Below, piece by piece: positions 7,030 through 12,147 of a stretch of 12,147 nt of DNA. A model generated the notes under the pieces. The model ran no database searches. It saw only the letters and a list, made by a program, of their open reading frames with translations, and was not told the origin of the DNA. Numbering within the stretch: the stretch's first letter is position 1; each line of letters begins with the position of its first letter. Where the stretch lies: the IMG/VR virus record IMGVR_UViG_2778261218_000003. One strand, written 5' to 3'. This DNA is from a virus (lineage: Duplodnaviria; Heunggongvirae; Uroviricota; Caudoviricetes). A program made the position numbers and the translations under genes.

Positions 7030-8250
7030 GTGGGAAAAGCACTAAACAAACTGAGCGATTCGACGTTAAAAAAATTGGCGGCTGTCCAGGCAGAAAAAGA
7101 GCGTTTTTACTCCGACGGGGGCGGGCTGGAGATTAAACACTCAAAGGGCGGCAAATTAACCTGGTATTTCCGGTACCGAACGGGAGGCCGTGAGGTTGCC
7201 GCAGAGCGGTTAAAGCTGGGGGCTTACCCTGAATTGTCGCTGAAAGCTGCAAGGGAAAAACGCGCACAGTGCCGGGCATGGCTGGCTGAGGGTAAAAACC
7301 CCCGTTATGAGTTGTGCGCCACAGTACAGGAAGCGCTAAAACCCGTTACGGTGAAGGAGGCGATTAACTACTGGCTGGATGAATATGCGAAGGATAACCG
7401 CAAAGACTACATAAAGCTGGTGCAACGTATGGATAAGCACATCATTTGCCATATAGGGGCAATTCCTCTTGATAAATGCGATACAAGGCAGTGGATCGCA
7501 TGTTTTGACCGTGTACGAAAAAAAGCACCAGTAGCAGCGGGGCACGTCATGCAAACCTGCAAACAGGCGCTAAAGTTCTGCCGCAGGAGGCGCTACGCGT
7601 TCAGTAATGCCCTGGACGATTTGATCGTCAGCGATGTGGGTAAGAGAGCAGAAATTCGCGAGAGGGTGCACAGCAACAGCGAATTAAAGGAAATTCTACG
7701 TGCTATTGATAGTGATGTGTTCGCGCCTTACTACAGCGCGTTAATGCGCTTGCTGATTGTGTTCGGGTGCAGAACGGCAGAGGTCAGACTTTCAGAGATC
7801 AAAGAATGGGATCTGAAAGAAATGTTGTGGACAGTACCAAGAGAGCACAGCAAAACGAAGGTAACGATATTCAGGCCAATCCCCGATGGCATTTTGCCGT
7901 TCATTCAGAAGCTGGTGGATCAGAACCGGCATACAGGGTTATTGCTCGGAGAACTGAAAAAAGATACCACGGTAGCGCAATATGGGCGAAATGCGCATAA
8001 GCGGCTTAAGCAGGAACACTGGACGCTGCATGACTTCCGGCACACGTTTACAACGATGCTGAACGATTTAGGTGTCGATCCGCATATCGTTGAGCACATC
8101 ACAGCGCATCAGATGCCCGGTCAGCAAAAAACCTATAACCATTCACGCTATTTACAGGCGAAGCGGGACGCGTTGAATCTGTGGGTTGAGCGTCTCGATG
8201 TGCTGGCTGGAAATCATGAAAATATTATTATGCTAAAGGTGGCTAAATGA
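7030..8250 (+). CDS. int: Tyrosine site-specific integrase, P4/CP4-57 family
   Basis: 406-aa ORF with a GTG start and RBS AAGAGGA at 7014-7020. The N-terminus is P4-int-like (GGLEIKHSKGGKLTWYFRYRTGGREV...GAYPELSLKAAR). The C-terminal catalytic region carries HDFRHTF (H-x-x-R) and a downstream Tyr (KTYNHSRY). Confidence 0.9.
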   Translation: MGKALNKLSDSTLKKLAAVQAEKERFYSDGGGLEIKHSKGGKLTWYFRYRTGGREVAAERLKLGAYPELSLKAAREKRAQCRAWLAEGKNPRYELCATVQEALKPVTVKEAINYWLDEYAKDNRKDYIKLVQRMDKHIICHIGAIPLDKCDTRQWIACFDRVRKKAPVAAGHVMQTCKQALKFCRRRRYAFSNALDDLIVSDVGKRAEIRERVHSNSELKEILRAIDSDVFAPYYSALMRLLIVFGCRTAEVRLSEIKEWDLKEMLWTVPREHSKTKVTIFRPIPDGILPFIQKLVDQNRHTGLLLGELKKDTTVAQYGRNAHKRLKQEHWTLHDFRHTFTTMLNDLGVDPHIVEHITAHQMPGQQKTYNHSRYLQAKRDALNLWVERLDVLAGNHENIIMLKVAK

Positions 8251-9020
8251 AATTACCAAAAAGACTCTATTATCCGCTACCTGAAGCAGCAGAAAAGTTA
8301 AGCTGTGCAATAAAAGATCTTTATCATTACGCATATATAGGTGCTCTTGATATTTCTGTATATATACCAAAAATTGATGCTAAAAAATTCAATTTATCAT
8401 TATGTCATTTTATCAATGGTTGTAATGAGGAAGAATTAATAAAATATCCGTTCAATGATGAATCTGTTGTTTTTGGCAGTAATTTTACAGTTGGTTTAAC
8501 TGGTGACTCTGAATTTTTAGATAGTGCTATTATTGGTCCGGTAGGGAATTCTATAAAATGTTATTATGTTAGCAGTTTGGAAGGGTTTTATTATACTCCA
8601 GCAAATGTTTTTGCTGATGCTGAATTTAGCATGAGACAATATATAAAATGTTCTCATCTTACGAATAGGTATGGTGATGATAATCTCATGTATGTTTTTT
8701 GTAAGGGTGGTTATGAGTTTGATGTTAACTATTTGTGTGTGATGGCTAGTGATTTAGATAATATAAAAAATACGGGAGACTTCCCGAAGCTAACAGAAGA
8801 TAGCCCAAAAGCATCGTCAAAAAGGAATGAGGTTATTTACTCTTTAATTAAACTTATTCCAGAAATGGGTGATGTAGACCTGGACACGGAATCATTACCT
8901 AAAATAGCGGATTTAATTGATTCTATAGCTGCATCCAGAGGGATAGAATTTCCCAAAACACACTGGCAGACATGGCAAAAGTATTTGGGGCGTGAACCTC
9001 AACAAAAACGTAAAAAGTGA
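8247..9020 (+). CDS. Hypothetical protein, AT-rich orphan cargo gene, no family recognised
   Basis: 257-aa ORF whose ATG overlaps the int stop (ATGA), with RBS AAGGTGG at 8235-8241. It is strongly AT-rich compared with both flanks (by eye, not computed). I recognise no catalytic motif. The N-terminus (KRLYYPLPEAAEKLSCAIKDLYHY) may be a small helix-turn-helix-like segment. Confidence 0.6.
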   Translation: MKLPKRLYYPLPEAAEKLSCAIKDLYHYAYIGALDISVYIPKIDAKKFNLSLCHFINGCNEEELIKYPFNDESVVFGSNFTVGLTGDSEFLDSAIIGPVGNSIKCYYVSSLEGFYYTPANVFADAEFSMRQYIKCSHLTNRYGDDNLMYVFCKGGYEFDVNYLCVMASDLDNIKNTGDFPKLTEDSPKASSKRNEVIYSLIKLIPEMGDVDLDTESLPKIADLIDSIAASRGIEFPKTHWQTWQKYLGREPQQKRKK

Positions 9021-9490: not shown

Positions 9491-10291
9491 ATGAAACAGC
9501 GAAAAACGCCCGTACAGGGGCAGGGCTTCGTTCGGCCTGAAAACCAGAATCTGCAAAATTTCGGCGAAATTATCCCGGTTATTTCCGGCATTATTGGCGG
9601 GTGTGAAACCAATATTGTTAGCGCCAGAGCGTTGCATAAGGCGTTAGGTGTAGGTCGCGTTTTCCGTTCGTGGATCAAGGGGCGCATTGAAGAATACGGC
9701 TTCACGGAAGGCGTGGATTATGAGGTTGTTGAATATTTGAGCCGACCCGATCCGGTGAGCGCAAAATCTCGCCAGCAAACAGCTCTTGAGTACATCATTA
9801 CCGTGAACATGGCGAAAGAACTGGCGATGGTCGAACGCACCGAACAGGGCCGCGCCGTTCGCCAGTACTTCATCAAATGCGAGGAGGAGCTACACAAGGT
9901 AGCGCCAGTGCGTTCCGCAGTGTTACGCCGGGAACTGAAAGCCCGTATCACAGTTGCCAGCTACTTTAAGCCAATGTGTGCCGCGCTGGAGGCGTACCGG
10001 GCTGAACTGGGTAAAAACACTCTACAGCACCACTACACCACGGAAGCCAATATGCTGGCGCGTATCGTGCTGGGCGGTATGACTGCCAGACAGTGGGCAC
10101 TGGCGAACGGCATTACAGGCGAACCACGCGACCACATGAGCACGTTGCAGCTTGAGCACCTTTCTTACCTTGAGCAGAGCAATATCACGCTGATTGAGTT
10201 AGGCCAGGGCTACCACCAGCGGAAAGCTGAATTAATTCGTCTTTCGCAGCGTTGGTTAGCCCGTCGCATGGAGGAAAACAGCCATGTGTAA
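9491..10291 (+). CDS. Phage antirepressor-like protein (AntA N-terminal region plus KilAC/ANT-type region)
   Basis: 266-aa ORF with RBS AGGAG at 9481-9485. The N-terminal segment (NIVSARALHKALGVGRVFRSWIKGRIEEYGFTEGVDY) resembles the AntA domain. The central segment (TALEYIITVNMAKELAMVERTEQGRAVRQYFIKCEEEL) resembles the KilAC domain. Both are from memory of those families. Confidence 0.7.
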   Translation: MKQRKTPVQGQGFVRPENQNLQNFGEIIPVISGIIGGCETNIVSARALHKALGVGRVFRSWIKGRIEEYGFTEGVDYEVVEYLSRPDPVSAKSRQQTALEYIITVNMAKELAMVERTEQGRAVRQYFIKCEEELHKVAPVRSAVLRRELKARITVASYFKPMCAALEAYRAELGKNTLQHHYTTEANMLARIVLGGMTARQWALANGITGEPRDHMSTLQLEHLSYLEQSNITLIELGQGYHQRKAELIRLSQRWLARRMEENSHV

Positions 10292-10726
10292 CGCTCTGAC
10301 CGTTACAAAAAGAGAAAGCGCCCCGTTGCCGGAGCGCCTTTGTGAACGAATAGCCTACTGCGCCATATTGCTTACTGTCTACGAGGCAGATTATAGCGTT
10401 GTGGTCGCACAGAGTGAAGGCGCTGATCACCGTTACTACAGCACACCAGAAATGCAGAATATTTTGCTGCAAAATGTCGTTGGTCACGCTGTCCGGAAAG
10501 CAAAAAATTTTGCTGGTGGCGCGACTGATGCGATTTTGTCAGGTAGCCAGGTGCTGATCAATCTGATGTCTGGTTTCGTTCTGGATAAAACAAAGGCGAC
10601 CGCAGAGGGTCGCCAGTGGGTATTACGGCAAATCAAACCTGAATGCATCGCCAACAATGCTGCATTTGTGGCTGGTGGGCAAATCTTTAGTGGAATTTTT
10701 TCCCTGTTGCCTGCACTGGGTAATGG
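10284..10726 (+). CDS. Hypothetical ORF coupled to the ant-like gene; 3' end undefined
   Basis: ATG at 10284 overlaps the ant stop (ATGTGTAA) and is preceded by GGAGG. The first ~150 codons look protein-like, but the frame has no stop until 12080 and runs antisense through three minus-strand genes. The true extent is unknown; it may be a truncated or fused gene remnant. The end coordinate is arbitrary. Confidence 0.3.
10583..10619 (+). repeat. Conserved hairpin element, copy 2
   Basis: ATAAAACAAAGGCGACC-GCAGAG-GGTCGCCAGTGG, same stem and flanks as copy 1, with loop substitutions only. Confidence 0.6.
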
Positions 10727-10909
10727 TTACTTGTATCGCGTATTCCTGCACAAAACAGGACTGCTTTTTTTGATGAAATCCTCAAGCAAAAAACACTCTG
10801 TTGATGCTCTTGGTAATTCTCTGGTGGAAGGATGGGGTTTTATCCCCCATTTTCGTTTACGTTCTTCCAGAAAGGAGGTGAGTATATCTAGTTTCTGTGC
10901 GTCCATCAT
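10727..10909 (-). CDS. Small hypothetical protein (60 aa), distal gene of the minus-strand operon
   Basis: ORF MMDAQKLDILTSFLEERKRKWGIKPHPSTRELPRASTECF... with a weak RBS (AAGAG). Its position in a same-strand array after the RHH gene supports it modestly. Confidence 0.3.
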   Translation of the reverse strand: MMDAQKLDILTSFLEERKRKWGIKPHPSTRELPRASTECFLLEDFIKKSSPVLCRNTRYK

Positions 10910-10966
10910 TTTTCTCTTGGATACTGCTTTGTGCCATGGATCCTCACACCACGGCGCTGATAGTGG

Positions 10967-11146
10967 TTATTTCTGCTCTTCAACATCACCATGTCGTGAT
11001 GTTTTCCAGGTATATAGCCCCATTTTTGTGCGCTTGTGCGTTTTAAGAAATTGCTCAAGGTGGAAGGTTTTAACCTTTCCCTGTTCGGTTTCTTGTGCAA
11101 TTTCTTTCGCCATTTGCTGGGCTAAAAAATCTTTTAATTTAGGCAT
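10967..11146 (-). CDS. Small hypothetical protein (59 aa), second gene of the minus-strand operon
   Basis: Below the ORF-track size cutoff; found by manual translation: MPKLKDFLAQQMAKEIAQETEQGKVKTFHLEQFLKTHKRTKMGLYTWKTSRHGDVEEQK. RBS AGGGGG lies 7 nt upstream and it has balanced, charged, helical composition. It starts 70 nt after the RHH gene stop. Confidence 0.45.
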   Translation of the reverse strand: MPKLKDFLAQQMAKEIAQETEQGKVKTFHLEQFLKTHKRTKMGLYTWKTSRHGDVEEQK

Positions 11147-11215
11147 GGTTCGCCCCCTGCTTACAGTCTGGCGCTCGAGTTCCTTAGGCTCTGGCGCGAA
11201 TGGTGATTATTCTGG

Positions 11216-11515
11216 CTACCCTTTGGCCTTGCGCCGCTGGAGTTCTTCACGAGCAACGGAAACAAGCTGCTCTATATTTTCGGCGAGTTCGACCCCTATT
11301 TTTTCCATTTGTTCCAGCGCATCGAGCGAAGAAACCAGGGGATTTTCTCCGCTTCCTTCTGCCTGGCGGCGGGCGATCTCACCGCGTACAGCCGTAACTA
11401 TAAAATTCGCTTTAGTTTCCCCTGGCTGTAGGGATGCCTCAATGCCACTCACTACTTCATGTGGAAATCTGGCATTCAGTTGCTGTGACTTATTGTTAAC
11501 AGAACTCGTGGACAT
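11216..11515 (-). CDS. Ribbon-helix-helix (Arc/MetJ/CopG-like) DNA-binding protein, possibly YlcI/YnfO-like
   Basis: The track ORF (11216-11692) is trimmed to the ATG at 11515, which has a strong RBS (GGAGGTG). The 99-aa protein (MSTSSVNNKSQQLNARFPHEVVSGIEASLQPGETKANFIVTAVRGEIARR...) has the beta-strand then helix pattern of RHH regulators at its N-terminus. It faces an operator-rich divergent region. Confidence 0.65.
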   Translation of the reverse strand: MSTSSVNNKSQQLNARFPHEVVSGIEASLQPGETKANFIVTAVRGEIARRQAEGSGENPLVSSLDALEQMEKIGVELAENIEQLVSVAREELQRRKAKG

Positions 11516-11558
11516 GTTTGCACCTCCGATTAATAACGGGATGCAGTGTAATACAAAA

Positions 11559-11614
11559 GTGAATACCAAAAAAGACTTGAAATGGTATTCACCAAAATGT
11601 AATCTGAATACCAC
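11559..11614 (+). promoter_or_regulatory. Operator-like repeats in the divergent control region
   Basis: Perfect 10-bp inverted repeat GTGAATACCA (11559-11568) / TGGTATTCAC (11583-11592) with a 14-bp spacer, plus a third half-site TGAATACCAC at 11605-11614. They lie between the RHH gene start (11515, minus) and the plus-strand gene at 11715. Confidence 0.5.
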
Positions 11615-11714
11615 AAGGGCTGATACATGCAATTCAGCAATTGAAACGACGAAGCCCCGCACTGTTGGAGCAGTAACGGGGCTTCTAACCAAACCGTTAA
11701 CAGGAGTAACGATT

Positions 11715-12080
11715 ATGGCTGGAACACAGCATACCCAAACTCACCCTAAATTTATATACACCTTCTTGGCGGTGCACCGTGATTGCATAGCTGACGGTAA
11801 AAACACTGTACACGTAGCCGCCGATACGCTGGTTGATGCCTGCGAGATGCTCAATGACATGGGCTATATCTCGGCAACATGGAAAGGGCGCGAAGAAAAC
11901 ACGCTGTTTATTCAGAAATGCGAGAACAATTTTATCTGGCGTTTTATCGCCCTGAGTACAGCACAACCGCGCGTGATTCACATCGAGGCCACCAGCGAAC
12001 AGGAAGCCCGCCAGCAATCTCCTGATGGCTGCGTGATGGTATTCGCTGCCCGTATTCGCCAGGAGGTGGAACATGTGTAA
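11715..12080 (+). CDS. Hypothetical protein (121 aa), first gene of the rightward operon
   Basis: ATG at 11715 with RBS AGGAG at 11702-11706 (MAGTQHTQTHPKFIYTFLAVHRDCIADGKNTVHVAAD...). It is in frame with, and forms the 3' part of, the 598-aa track ORF. I prefer it to the overlapping minus ORF 11697-12116, which is Cys/His-rich and low-complexity. Confidence 0.55.
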   Translation: MAGTQHTQTHPKFIYTFLAVHRDCIADGKNTVHVAADTLVDACEMLNDMGYISATWKGREENTLFIQKCENNFIWRFIALSTAQPRVIHIEATSEQEARQQSPDGCVMVFAARIRQEVEHV

Positions 12081-12147
12081 TGCAACATGGCCTGATGCAG
12101 CGGTAGACGCTATCAAAACGCTGATGGATTCACTTATTGAGATTTCT
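12073..12147 (+). CDS. Hypothetical protein, 5' fragment (continues beyond window)
   Basis: ATG at 12073 overlaps the upstream stop (ATGTGTAA) and follows RBS AGGAGGTGG at 12061-12069. Only 25 codons are visible (MCNATWPDAAVDAIKTLMDSLIEIS). Confidence 0.3.
   Translation, partial: MCNATWPDAAVDAIKTLMDSLIEIS

Follow-up and report, generated by a model that had tools for sequence, protein, structure and literature searches.

Small ribbon-helix-helix (RHH) repressors, Mnt and Arc, act in the immI region of phage P22 alongside the ant operon and the sar antisense RNA. Gram-positive phage-inducible chromosomal islands (PICIs) stay silent under the master repressor Stl, a helix-turn-helix rather than an RHH protein, which is inactivated by helper phages. 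The founding paper on Gram-negative PICIs described unidirectional rightward transcription with AlpA as activator and called the global repressor "unclear" (Fillol-Salom et al. 2018, PMC6092414), while a later study described immunity RNAs in a "Bro zone" that lies between the zones of integration and replication (Mageeney et al. 2023, PMC10111431). We analyzed a 12,147-bp stretch of viral DNA (IMG/VR record IMGVR_UViG_2778261218_000003; the whole stretch is called the window below), whose gene content and order identify it as the left end of an enterobacterial (Gram-negative) PICI, and focused on the control region between a leftward gene for a 99-residue RHH-like protein of the YlcI/YnfO family and a rightward Icd-like gene. 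We consider it reasonably probable from the sequence that this region is an RHH repressor-operator switch over the Icd/replication promoter, with autoregulation and probably with an antisense RNA as a second layer. As such it would be a fresh case of a well-known class, the RHH repressors at divergent promoters of mobile elements. The control region reads as follows, in window positions.

11216–11515, minus strand: RHH-like gene, 99 residues, YlcI/YnfO family, candidate repressor; ATG start
11521–11527, minus strand: Shine-Dalgarno sequence GGAGGTG of the RHH gene, 5 nt upstream of the ATG, read from the sequence
11548–11553, minus strand: candidate −10 (TATTAC) of the leftward RHH promoter, read from the sequence
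11559–11568: site O1, GTGAATACCA, 9 bp upstream of the rightward −35 and beside the leftward −10
11577–11582, plus strand: −35 (TTGAAA) of the rightward Icd-operon promoter, with CTTGA at an unchanged offset in those YlcI-type classes that retain it
11583–11592: site O2, TGGTATTCAC, filling the spacer of the rightward promoter and forming a perfect inverted repeat with O1
11598–11603 or 11600–11605, plus strand: putative rightward −10, TGTAAT (15-bp spacer) or TAATCT (17-bp spacer), from the sequence and the aligned classes
11604–11613: site O3, CTGAATACCA, just past the rightward −10 and over the expected transcription start
11651–11685, minus strand: hairpin followed by a U-rich run, from folding and covariation
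11684–11700, plus strand: Icd-leader 17-mer TCTAACCAAACCGTTAA, in all loci compared by construction, as it was the search key
11715–12080, plus strand: Icd-like gene, first of the rightward (replication) operon (NF033153, E = 6e-23)

This layout has the anatomy of a master-repressor locus, i.e., a gene divergent from the replication operon with sites over that operon's promoter, the promoter being assigned by consensus only. A first-pass annotation, made from the sequence alone, had described an RHH-type gene with a strong ribosome-binding site, and both are present, as are the perfect inverted repeat that it reported (O1 and O2) and the third copy, TGAATACCA at 11605–11613; the facing plus-strand gene also exists and is Icd-like, but it starts at 11715 and not at 11716. 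The sites are non-random in their distribution. Both strands of the 12,147 bp together contain exactly three copies of the 9-mer TGAATACCA, and all three (11560–68, plus; 11583–91, minus; 11605–13, plus) fall within 54 bp, with centers 23 and 22 bp apart, against a chance expectation of ~0.09 for the exact 9-mer in 12 kb on both strands (our own arithmetic). When up to one mismatch is allowed, the number of matches is 8, compared to 3.3 expected. O1 and O2 form a 10-N14-10 inverted arrangement. Two one-mismatch copies, TGGCATTCA at 11470–11478 in the RHH coding region and TGGTATTCG at 12037–12045 near the 3′ end of Icd, are conserved only in near-identical relatives.

With the conserved 17-mer that lies shortly before the Icd start as key, we fetched ~100 loci from viral contigs, and 60 of them carry this YlcI/YnfO-type RHH gene divergent from Icd. 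A peptide-pattern scan for the RHH protein in species-representative genomes matched 600 stretches, none of which was confirmed. Four classes of β-strand can be identified among the 60 loci, each paired with its own repeat: KSQQLNAR, the class of the window, with TGGTATTCAC; KSKQISIR with TGTGATTCA, the sites carried by locus L004; KSQMTTIR with TGTATATCAC/TATATCTCAC; and RSQMKNIR with GGTGTGTACAC-like repeats. Relative to the conserved −35 (CTTGA), the repeats occupy the same places in the four classes, namely upstream of it, in the spacer and just after the −10, the spacer and post-−10 sites of the RSQMKNIR class being degenerate matches seen by eye. A further copy often lies beside the RHH-side promoter, in some classes downstream of the leftward −10, and this −10 position is occupied by TATACT and TATAGT in other classes. 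Adding rarer classes and the prototype PICI EcCICFT073 brings the number of specificity classes to at least 10, each having a repeat of its own; counted from the start codon of the RHH gene, the sites lie at ~22, 44, 67 and 89 nt and CTTGA, where kept, near offset 60. The motif of each class clusters solely in the RHH-Icd intergenic region of its island, and no extra site clusters were found elsewhere in the islands (e.g., at alpA or antA).

The site class tracks the RHH N-terminus and not AlpA, the integrase or Icd. In the seven loci that carry the window's sites, the RHH N-termini are 98–100% identical, compared to 27–84% for AlpA, 23–98% for the integrase and 45–100% for Icd, where these genes are present in the fetched locus; conversely, other sites are carried by loci with a 100% identical Icd but 42–49% identical RHH N-termini. 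The first-pass annotation had proposed an immunity or induction switch as one of two alternatives for this region, and both the placement of the sites and their covariation with the RHH N-terminus across at least 10 classes support it.

Most of the ~40 loci without a YlcI-type gene have another stand-alone RHH-like gene, of 57–69 residues, in the same divergent slot (Pfam matches: HicB, E = 1.4e-5; Arc, E = 0.006; DUF3950, E = 1.7e-10). In EcCICFT073 itself (L107, NC_004431.1 1380242–1381052), the current RefSeq record has a minus-strand pair between alpA and Icd, consisting of a YlcI/YnfO gene of 59 residues (C_RS30120) and a gene of 57 residues (C_RS30800) of the same type as ORF59, the second leftward gene of the window (see below). 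A promoter with TTGACG carries GTGGGCCAC twice here, once within its spacer and once past the −10. No mention of C_RS30120 or C_RS30800 was found in the searchable literature, which comprises open-access papers only, such that an earlier description elsewhere is possible; the same literature yielded no mention of a master-repressor role of the RHH protein in PICIs, and a 2026 survey lists YlcI/YnfO only as "prophage-associated protein" (PMC13612085).

The 99-residue protein is a member of the YlcI/YnfO family. It matches NCBIfam NF041551 (YlcI_YnfO_N) over residues 9–50 with 60.4 bits (cut-off 30) and PHROGs family phrog_6522 (E = 7e-40), and PGAP labels its homologues in relatives YlcI/YnfO. 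The family is small and enterobacterial, with 81 relatives among the 1.84 billion cluster representatives searched, most of which are forms of 55–65 residues that consist of the N-terminal domain alone. Residues 1–45 of the window's protein make up a variable part that is predicted to bind DNA in an RHH-like manner, and residues 45–99 a near-invariant helical part. Among relatives, residues 1–40 vary whereas the C-terminal half (residues 45–99) is nearly invariant, a combination expected for exchangeable specificity on a common scaffold. The conserved C-terminal domain (residues 55–99, window 11216–11350) contains an invariant I73-G74, and it is exactly this domain that natural 59-residue short forms, such as those of EcCICFT073 and locus L032, are without.

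An RHH fold is plausible for this protein from its sequence. Its N-terminal stretch QQLNARFPHEVVSGI (pattern xxLNARFPHEVV) aligns in register with the β-strand and helix A of Arc, although the match is weak (hhalign E = 4e-4, probability 35%, 24 columns). Single members of the family match RHH_1, CB_ParB_C and PSK_trans_fac weakly (E = 3e-4 to 3e-3), the window's protein matches Pfam PSK_trans_fac, a VapB-type antitoxin family, below the cut-off (E = 0.011), and its best PDB match is 3no7 (E = 0.28), with MazE and TraM among the weak structural matches. The weak matches of the protein to classical families and structures are all to RHH proteins and none is significant; profile searches of the PDB with three alignments gave no significant RHH match, and Pfam DUF3950 does not match the window's protein. 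Of the RHH identity given in the first-pass annotation, what stands firmly is membership of the YlcI/YnfO family, whereas the matches to classical RHH proteins are all weak. AlphaFold2 (monomer) models helices at residues 19–28 and 35–54 and a long helix at residues 59–98, and no strand. The sole match below 0.01 in the PDB profile searches relates the C-terminal part to the helix-hairpin-helix domain of Hef (Hef/XPF, E = 0.003), a likeness that we did not rely on because AlphaFold2 models one long helix there.

In the repressor-operator switch that we favor, the 99-residue protein would be a sequence-specific RHH DNA-binding protein that recognizes the 9–10-bp site TGGTATTCAC. It would occupy three sites placed two helical turns apart (22–23 bp), one upstream of the −35, one within the spacer and one over the rightward start, the first of which also abuts the protein's own leftward promoter. 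Because the sites cover the rightward promoter and O1 adjoins the leftward one, their occupancy would silence the Icd/replication operon and give autoregulation of the RHH gene, with the logic of an immunity repressor such as Mnt of P22 or Stl of Gram-positive PICIs. The conserved C-terminal helical domain probably joins dimers for joint binding of distant sites, or else receives an inducing signal. As a likely second layer, a short leftward RNA ending at 11651–11685 would lie antisense to the leader and the ribosome-binding site of Icd.

The organization resembles that of P22 immI in several respects: a small, putative RHH repressor gene is divergent from an operon whose promoter is covered by sites, autoregulation is likely, the RHH-like part is followed, as in Mnt, by a C-terminal helical part that could join dimers, and, like sar over ant, a short cis-antisense RNA probably lies over the ribosome-binding site of the first regulated gene. 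However, the protein matches neither Arc nor Mnt significantly in sequence or structure, its three separated sites of 9–10 bp, 22–23 bp apart, differ from the one compact operator of 17–21 bp in P22, and the operon that it would control opens with an Icd-like gene and continues to a primase instead of an antirepressor. NikR and TraM of F-like plasmids combine an RHH part with a separate oligomerization domain and have inverted half-sites about two turns apart, and the 10-N14-10 arrangement of the window is similar. The family's namesakes in E. coli K-12, YlcI of the DLP12 prophage and YnfO of the Qin prophage (Pfam DUF3950), are encoded in lambdoid prophages, close to the terminase genes. By its N-terminal domain the window's protein belongs to their family (NF041551), but in contrast to these short proteins it has an extra conserved C-terminal domain of 50 residues and sits at a divergent promoter with sites of its own. 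Like Stl/Rpr of the Staphylococcus aureus pathogenicity islands (SaPIs), the window's protein is encoded by a gene divergent from a satellite replication operon, next to the int side (PMC6092414); Stl proteins are much larger, however, and whereas Stl is lifted by helper-phage proteins, no such partner is known for the window's protein.

We next turn to the Icd leader. The hairpin at 11651–11685 is a minus-strand structure and, as judged from its sequence variants, the intrinsic terminator of a leftward transcript, because the folding energy summed over 47 variants is lower on the minus strand (−1114 kcal/mol) than on the plus strand (−898 kcal/mol), G·U pairs are in excess there (96 versus 23 in the 47 variants; a G·U pair on one strand is an A·C mismatch on the other), RNAalifold finds compensatory changes in 7 of its 14 pairs, and a U-rich run trails it. 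A cis-antisense small RNA (window 11645–11760, minus strand) is probably made over the Icd leader, ribosome-binding site and start codon, and the 17-mer TCTAACCAAACCGTTAA would be the body of this putative RNA. The Icd start region ATTATGGCTG and codons 5–9 (CAGCATACCCAAAC) are near-invariant, synonymous positions included, which fits an embedded antisense promoter; TTGGGT-15-CATAAT or TATGCT are candidate minus-strand promoters.

An Icd-type first gene whose structured, conserved leader is, or in the window would be, under RNA control is shared with the immI region of P1/P7 (c4 RNA, icd, ant) and with P4 immunity (CI RNA, seqA/seqC), and the immunity RNAs noted by Mageeney et al. (PMC10111431) fall into the same zone of Gram-negative PICIs, but the structure in the window lies on the opposite strand, which points to a cis-antisense RNA rather than a processed RNA of the sense strand. 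SymR, the antisense RNA of the type I cis-antisense pair SymR/SymE, offers a different parallel, since the putative RNA would likewise start at the start codon and end in a terminator; the Icd-like proteins are nevertheless unrelated to SymE, and the SymR scores are sub-threshold. On the minus strand from the Icd start to the hairpin, the SymR model (Rfam RF01809) scores 37 bits (E = 5e-4) in locus L001 and 33.6 bits in locus L010, both below its gathering score of 61 bits, and it gives no match to the window's own hairpin variant. Rfam searches of the window returned only chance-level matches, with no C4, isrK or symR, and neither C4 nor isrK matches L001. The segment 11650–11775 alone matches bona fide phage records at 79–86% identity, namely mEp460_ev081, Morganella phage IME1369_01, Klebsiella phage P12620-1 and a 16.5-kb "phage," vB_KppS-Ant; in mEp460 the matching stretch is unannotated and falls upstream of Q, within the nin region. 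It follows that the leader/antisense element circulates beyond satellites.

On the other side of the control region, the leftward strand downstream of the RHH gene carries two small open reading frames (ORFs) and two hairpins.

10967–11146, minus strand: ORF59, 59 residues, small basic helical accessory protein with the core F-x-LE-x-FLKE
10727–10909, minus strand: ORF60, 60 residues, weak ribosome-binding site, wholly inside a rare indel segment
10683–10940: the rare 258-bp indel segment, which holds all of ORF60
10595–10614, minus strand: intrinsic terminator, GGCGACCCTCTGCGGTCGCC followed by a T run, inside the conserved block 10292–10682
10315–10340, minus strand: second terminator-like hairpin, just past the antA stop and invariant among relatives

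Both ORFs exist as reported in the first pass, but the three-gene minus-strand operon that was built on them is not confirmed as such, with ORF59 absent from many loci and ORF60 confined to the rare segment. ORF59 is probably a real gene, judging from its pattern of variation. It matches phrog_21027 (E = 7e-13), its homologues are annotated by PGAP in relatives as hypothetical protein, and its 18 protein variants have in-frame indels and a ratio of nonsynonymous to synonymous polymorphism (pN/pS) of ~0.54. Variable sites among 12 distinct homologues are distributed 17/13/30 over codon positions 1/2/3 (p = 0.019), and an overlapping alternative frame was rejected as the true gene of this region since it is in the ORF59 frame, and not in the other, that third codon positions vary most. 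The AlphaFold2 model is a single helix of low confidence (pLDDT 67). ORF59 would be an accessory gene that is co-transcribed with the RHH gene. In the KSQMTTIR class, most loci have no ORF of at least 30 residues within 450 nt downstream of an intact RHH gene, and single loci of other classes likewise are without an ORF59-type gene while the RHH gene is kept.

ORF60 is outside the conserved module. Most relatives lack the 258-bp segment, which is present in 3 of 5,426 complete E. coli genomes and never annotated there, and a search of 5.8 billion proteins found no ORF60 homologue. Its sole diverged copy keeps the frame, with three of four changes synonymous, and has 4 changes in 183 nt compared to 7 in 75 nt of flanks. 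The remark of the first-pass annotation that the small partners belong to no recognized toxin family is borne out: searches of Pfam, NCBIfam, PHROGs and PADLOC assign neither ORF59 nor ORF60 to a family of toxins, antitoxins or defence proteins, and PADLOC gives no match for the RHH protein either.

The leftward RHH transcript probably ends at the terminator at 10614–10595, and the hairpin at 10315–10340 could serve as a back-stop against leftward read-through into antA. The block downstream of antA that contains them (10292–10682, 390 bp) is 90–98% conserved in ~25 loci irrespective of the flanking genes, and its variable sites by codon position (34/31/24) display no three-base periodicity. 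A promoter-like TTCACT-17-TATAAT (10418–10390) on its minus strand could drive a ~70-nt RNA ending at 10315. A stop-free frame of 598 codons on the plus strand (10284–12080) shares its frame with Icd and lies antisense to ORF60, ORF59 and the RHH gene; the corresponding 598-residue ORF, and other ORFs in 10292–10682, were rejected as genes, being without family matches and without codon periodicity. Annotation pipelines sometimes stretch Icd (192 residues in locus L002) or the RHH gene (173 residues in P0004) into antisense frames.

How well do other readings account for these observations? The second alternative of the first-pass annotation, a type II toxin-antitoxin module in which an RHH antitoxin would autoregulate the operon and the small toxin would be ORF59, ORF60 or both, draws on the order of an RHH gene followed by a small ORF, which is that of many type II modules, on the sub-threshold match to PSK_trans_fac, and on the presence of MazE antitoxins among the best weak structural matches. 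It is nonetheless very unlikely and was not sustained, because the adjacent partner is not constant (ORF59 is lost from most KSQMTTIR loci with RHH intact, and ORF60 occurs only in the 3 genomes mentioned), neither ORF has a known toxin family or fold in the four databases, ORF59 being modeled as a single basic helix, and the positional analogues are stand-alone RHH genes. Moreover, the sites cover the divergent Icd promoter and not the RHH promoter alone, and they cluster only there. The same placement bears on the idea that the RHH protein regulates only its own leftward operon, e.g., with ORF59 as an accessory or interference gene, while Icd is controlled by AlpA or by RNA. The abutment of O1 on the leftward −10, the extra site downstream of that −10 in other classes, and the report that AlpA activates EcCICFT073 genes (PMC6092414) would all suit this idea, but the sites of YlcI-type classes recur in the rightward spacer and past the −10 (degenerate in RSQMKNIR), where pure autoregulation has no need of them, and many loci have no downstream gene to regulate; we regard it as unlikely.

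Two further explanations keep the sites as true binding sites and change either the effect or the binder. The protein might activate the rightward promoter or act as an architectural factor, for example by compensating a 15-bp spacer, since in three classes the best −10 hexamers (TGTAAT, TTTAAT, TATAAT) lie 15 bp from the −35, which makes a poor promoter. This is quite unlikely, given that steric repression classically has one site inside the spacer and one over the start position, and that activators usually bind upstream of the −35 only. That the repeats are bound by AlpA, the Icd-like protein, the integrase or a host protein, with the RHH gene as a bystander, is the most improbable of these readings: AlpA is indeed a DNA-binding regulator, and PHROGs labels families matching the Icd-like C-terminus "transcriptional repressor," yet the site sequence follows the RHH N-terminus independently of AlpA, integrase and Icd variants, and a host factor would need no island-specific site classes.

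The repressor-operator switch has points of its own to answer. Both promoter assignments are consensus readings, and a simple promoter scan called neither; the rightward promoter is a modest match to consensus with its 15- or 17-bp spacer, and no convincing −35 was recognized near the TATTAC of the leftward promoter. Locus L032 has the β-strand of the window in a 59-residue short form, but its sites, TGCGATTCAC, agree with that of the window at 8 of 10 positions, and hence the β-strand alone does not set specificity. There are ~10 specificity classes, and many loci within a class are near-identical, so that the covariation rests on few independent events. Finally, the work on EcCICFT073 described AlpA as an activator and reported no repressor (PMC6092414).

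Outside the control region, the element's left end occupies the window from 7030 onward and contains the following genes.

7030–8250: tyrosine integrase gene, int (family/profile matches)
8247–9020, plus strand: orf257, 257 residues, overlapping the integrase stop codon
9110–9334: alpA, AlpA-family regulator (family/profile matches)
9491–10291, plus strand: antA, AntA-type gene (family/profile matches)

The window starts in E. coli chromosomal genes, comprising a four-gene fimbrial operon, which we take to be yehDCBA, and then rcnB, rcnA and rcnR, all of these names coming from our own reading of the translations. In the element, the gene order is int, orf257, alpA, antA, the leftward RHH gene and then the divergent Icd-like/replication operon. 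We took a Gram-negative PICI to have int and then alpA at one end, a primase/replication module, packaging-related genes and a size of ~10–15 kb; int and AlpA lie in the window, and the layout is shared by EcCICFT073 and by L001, the closest complete relative, which is an element of ~12 kb in E. coli PapRG-04-4. L001 is 96.8% identical to the window over 10300–12147, and its island continues with DUF4222, primase, ProQ/FinO, PerC, NUDIX and DUF2213 genes. The region 10300–12147 has matches in 1,060 of 5,426 complete E. coli genomes, and because query coverage exceeds 80% in one of these only, the region is a mosaic.

The product of orf257 has no family match in Pfam, NCBIfam or PADLOC. The interval between int and alpA holds differing genes in relatives, and the place of orf257 looks like a variable cargo slot. 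In locus L004, the int-alpA RNA motif of Rfam (RF02996) is found at 885–952, between int and the next gene, with a score above the gathering score (40.3 bits); the window, in which orf257 adjoins int, gave no match to this motif. In the AntA-type protein, the C-terminal part (residues 172–254) matches the PADLOC candidate defence family PDC-S22 (E = 1.9e-8).

The interest of the locus is that it makes the question of the Gram-negative PICI repressor testable. Even if the switch were not borne out, the region would still display a clear co-variation of regulator and operator in a mosaic mobile element. A wider proposal, which we make tentatively, as a possibility suggested by the compared loci, is that Gram-negative PICIs, the prototype EcCICFT073 among them, have their master repressors or immunity determinants in the YlcI/YnfO-type proteins and the other small RHH proteins of the divergent slot. 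These would fall into exchangeable specificity classes, each having operators of its own over the Icd-replication promoter, and would act jointly with a cis-antisense RNA over the Icd ribosome-binding site. If so, the picture of AlpA as activator, unidirectional transcription and no known repressor would be incomplete, and the YlcI/YnfO (DUF3950) family would gain a function. Immunity groups would then be defined among enterobacterial satellites, the classes would supply a set of small orthogonal repressor-operator pairs, and the sensing of helper phages by these islands would become directly accessible.

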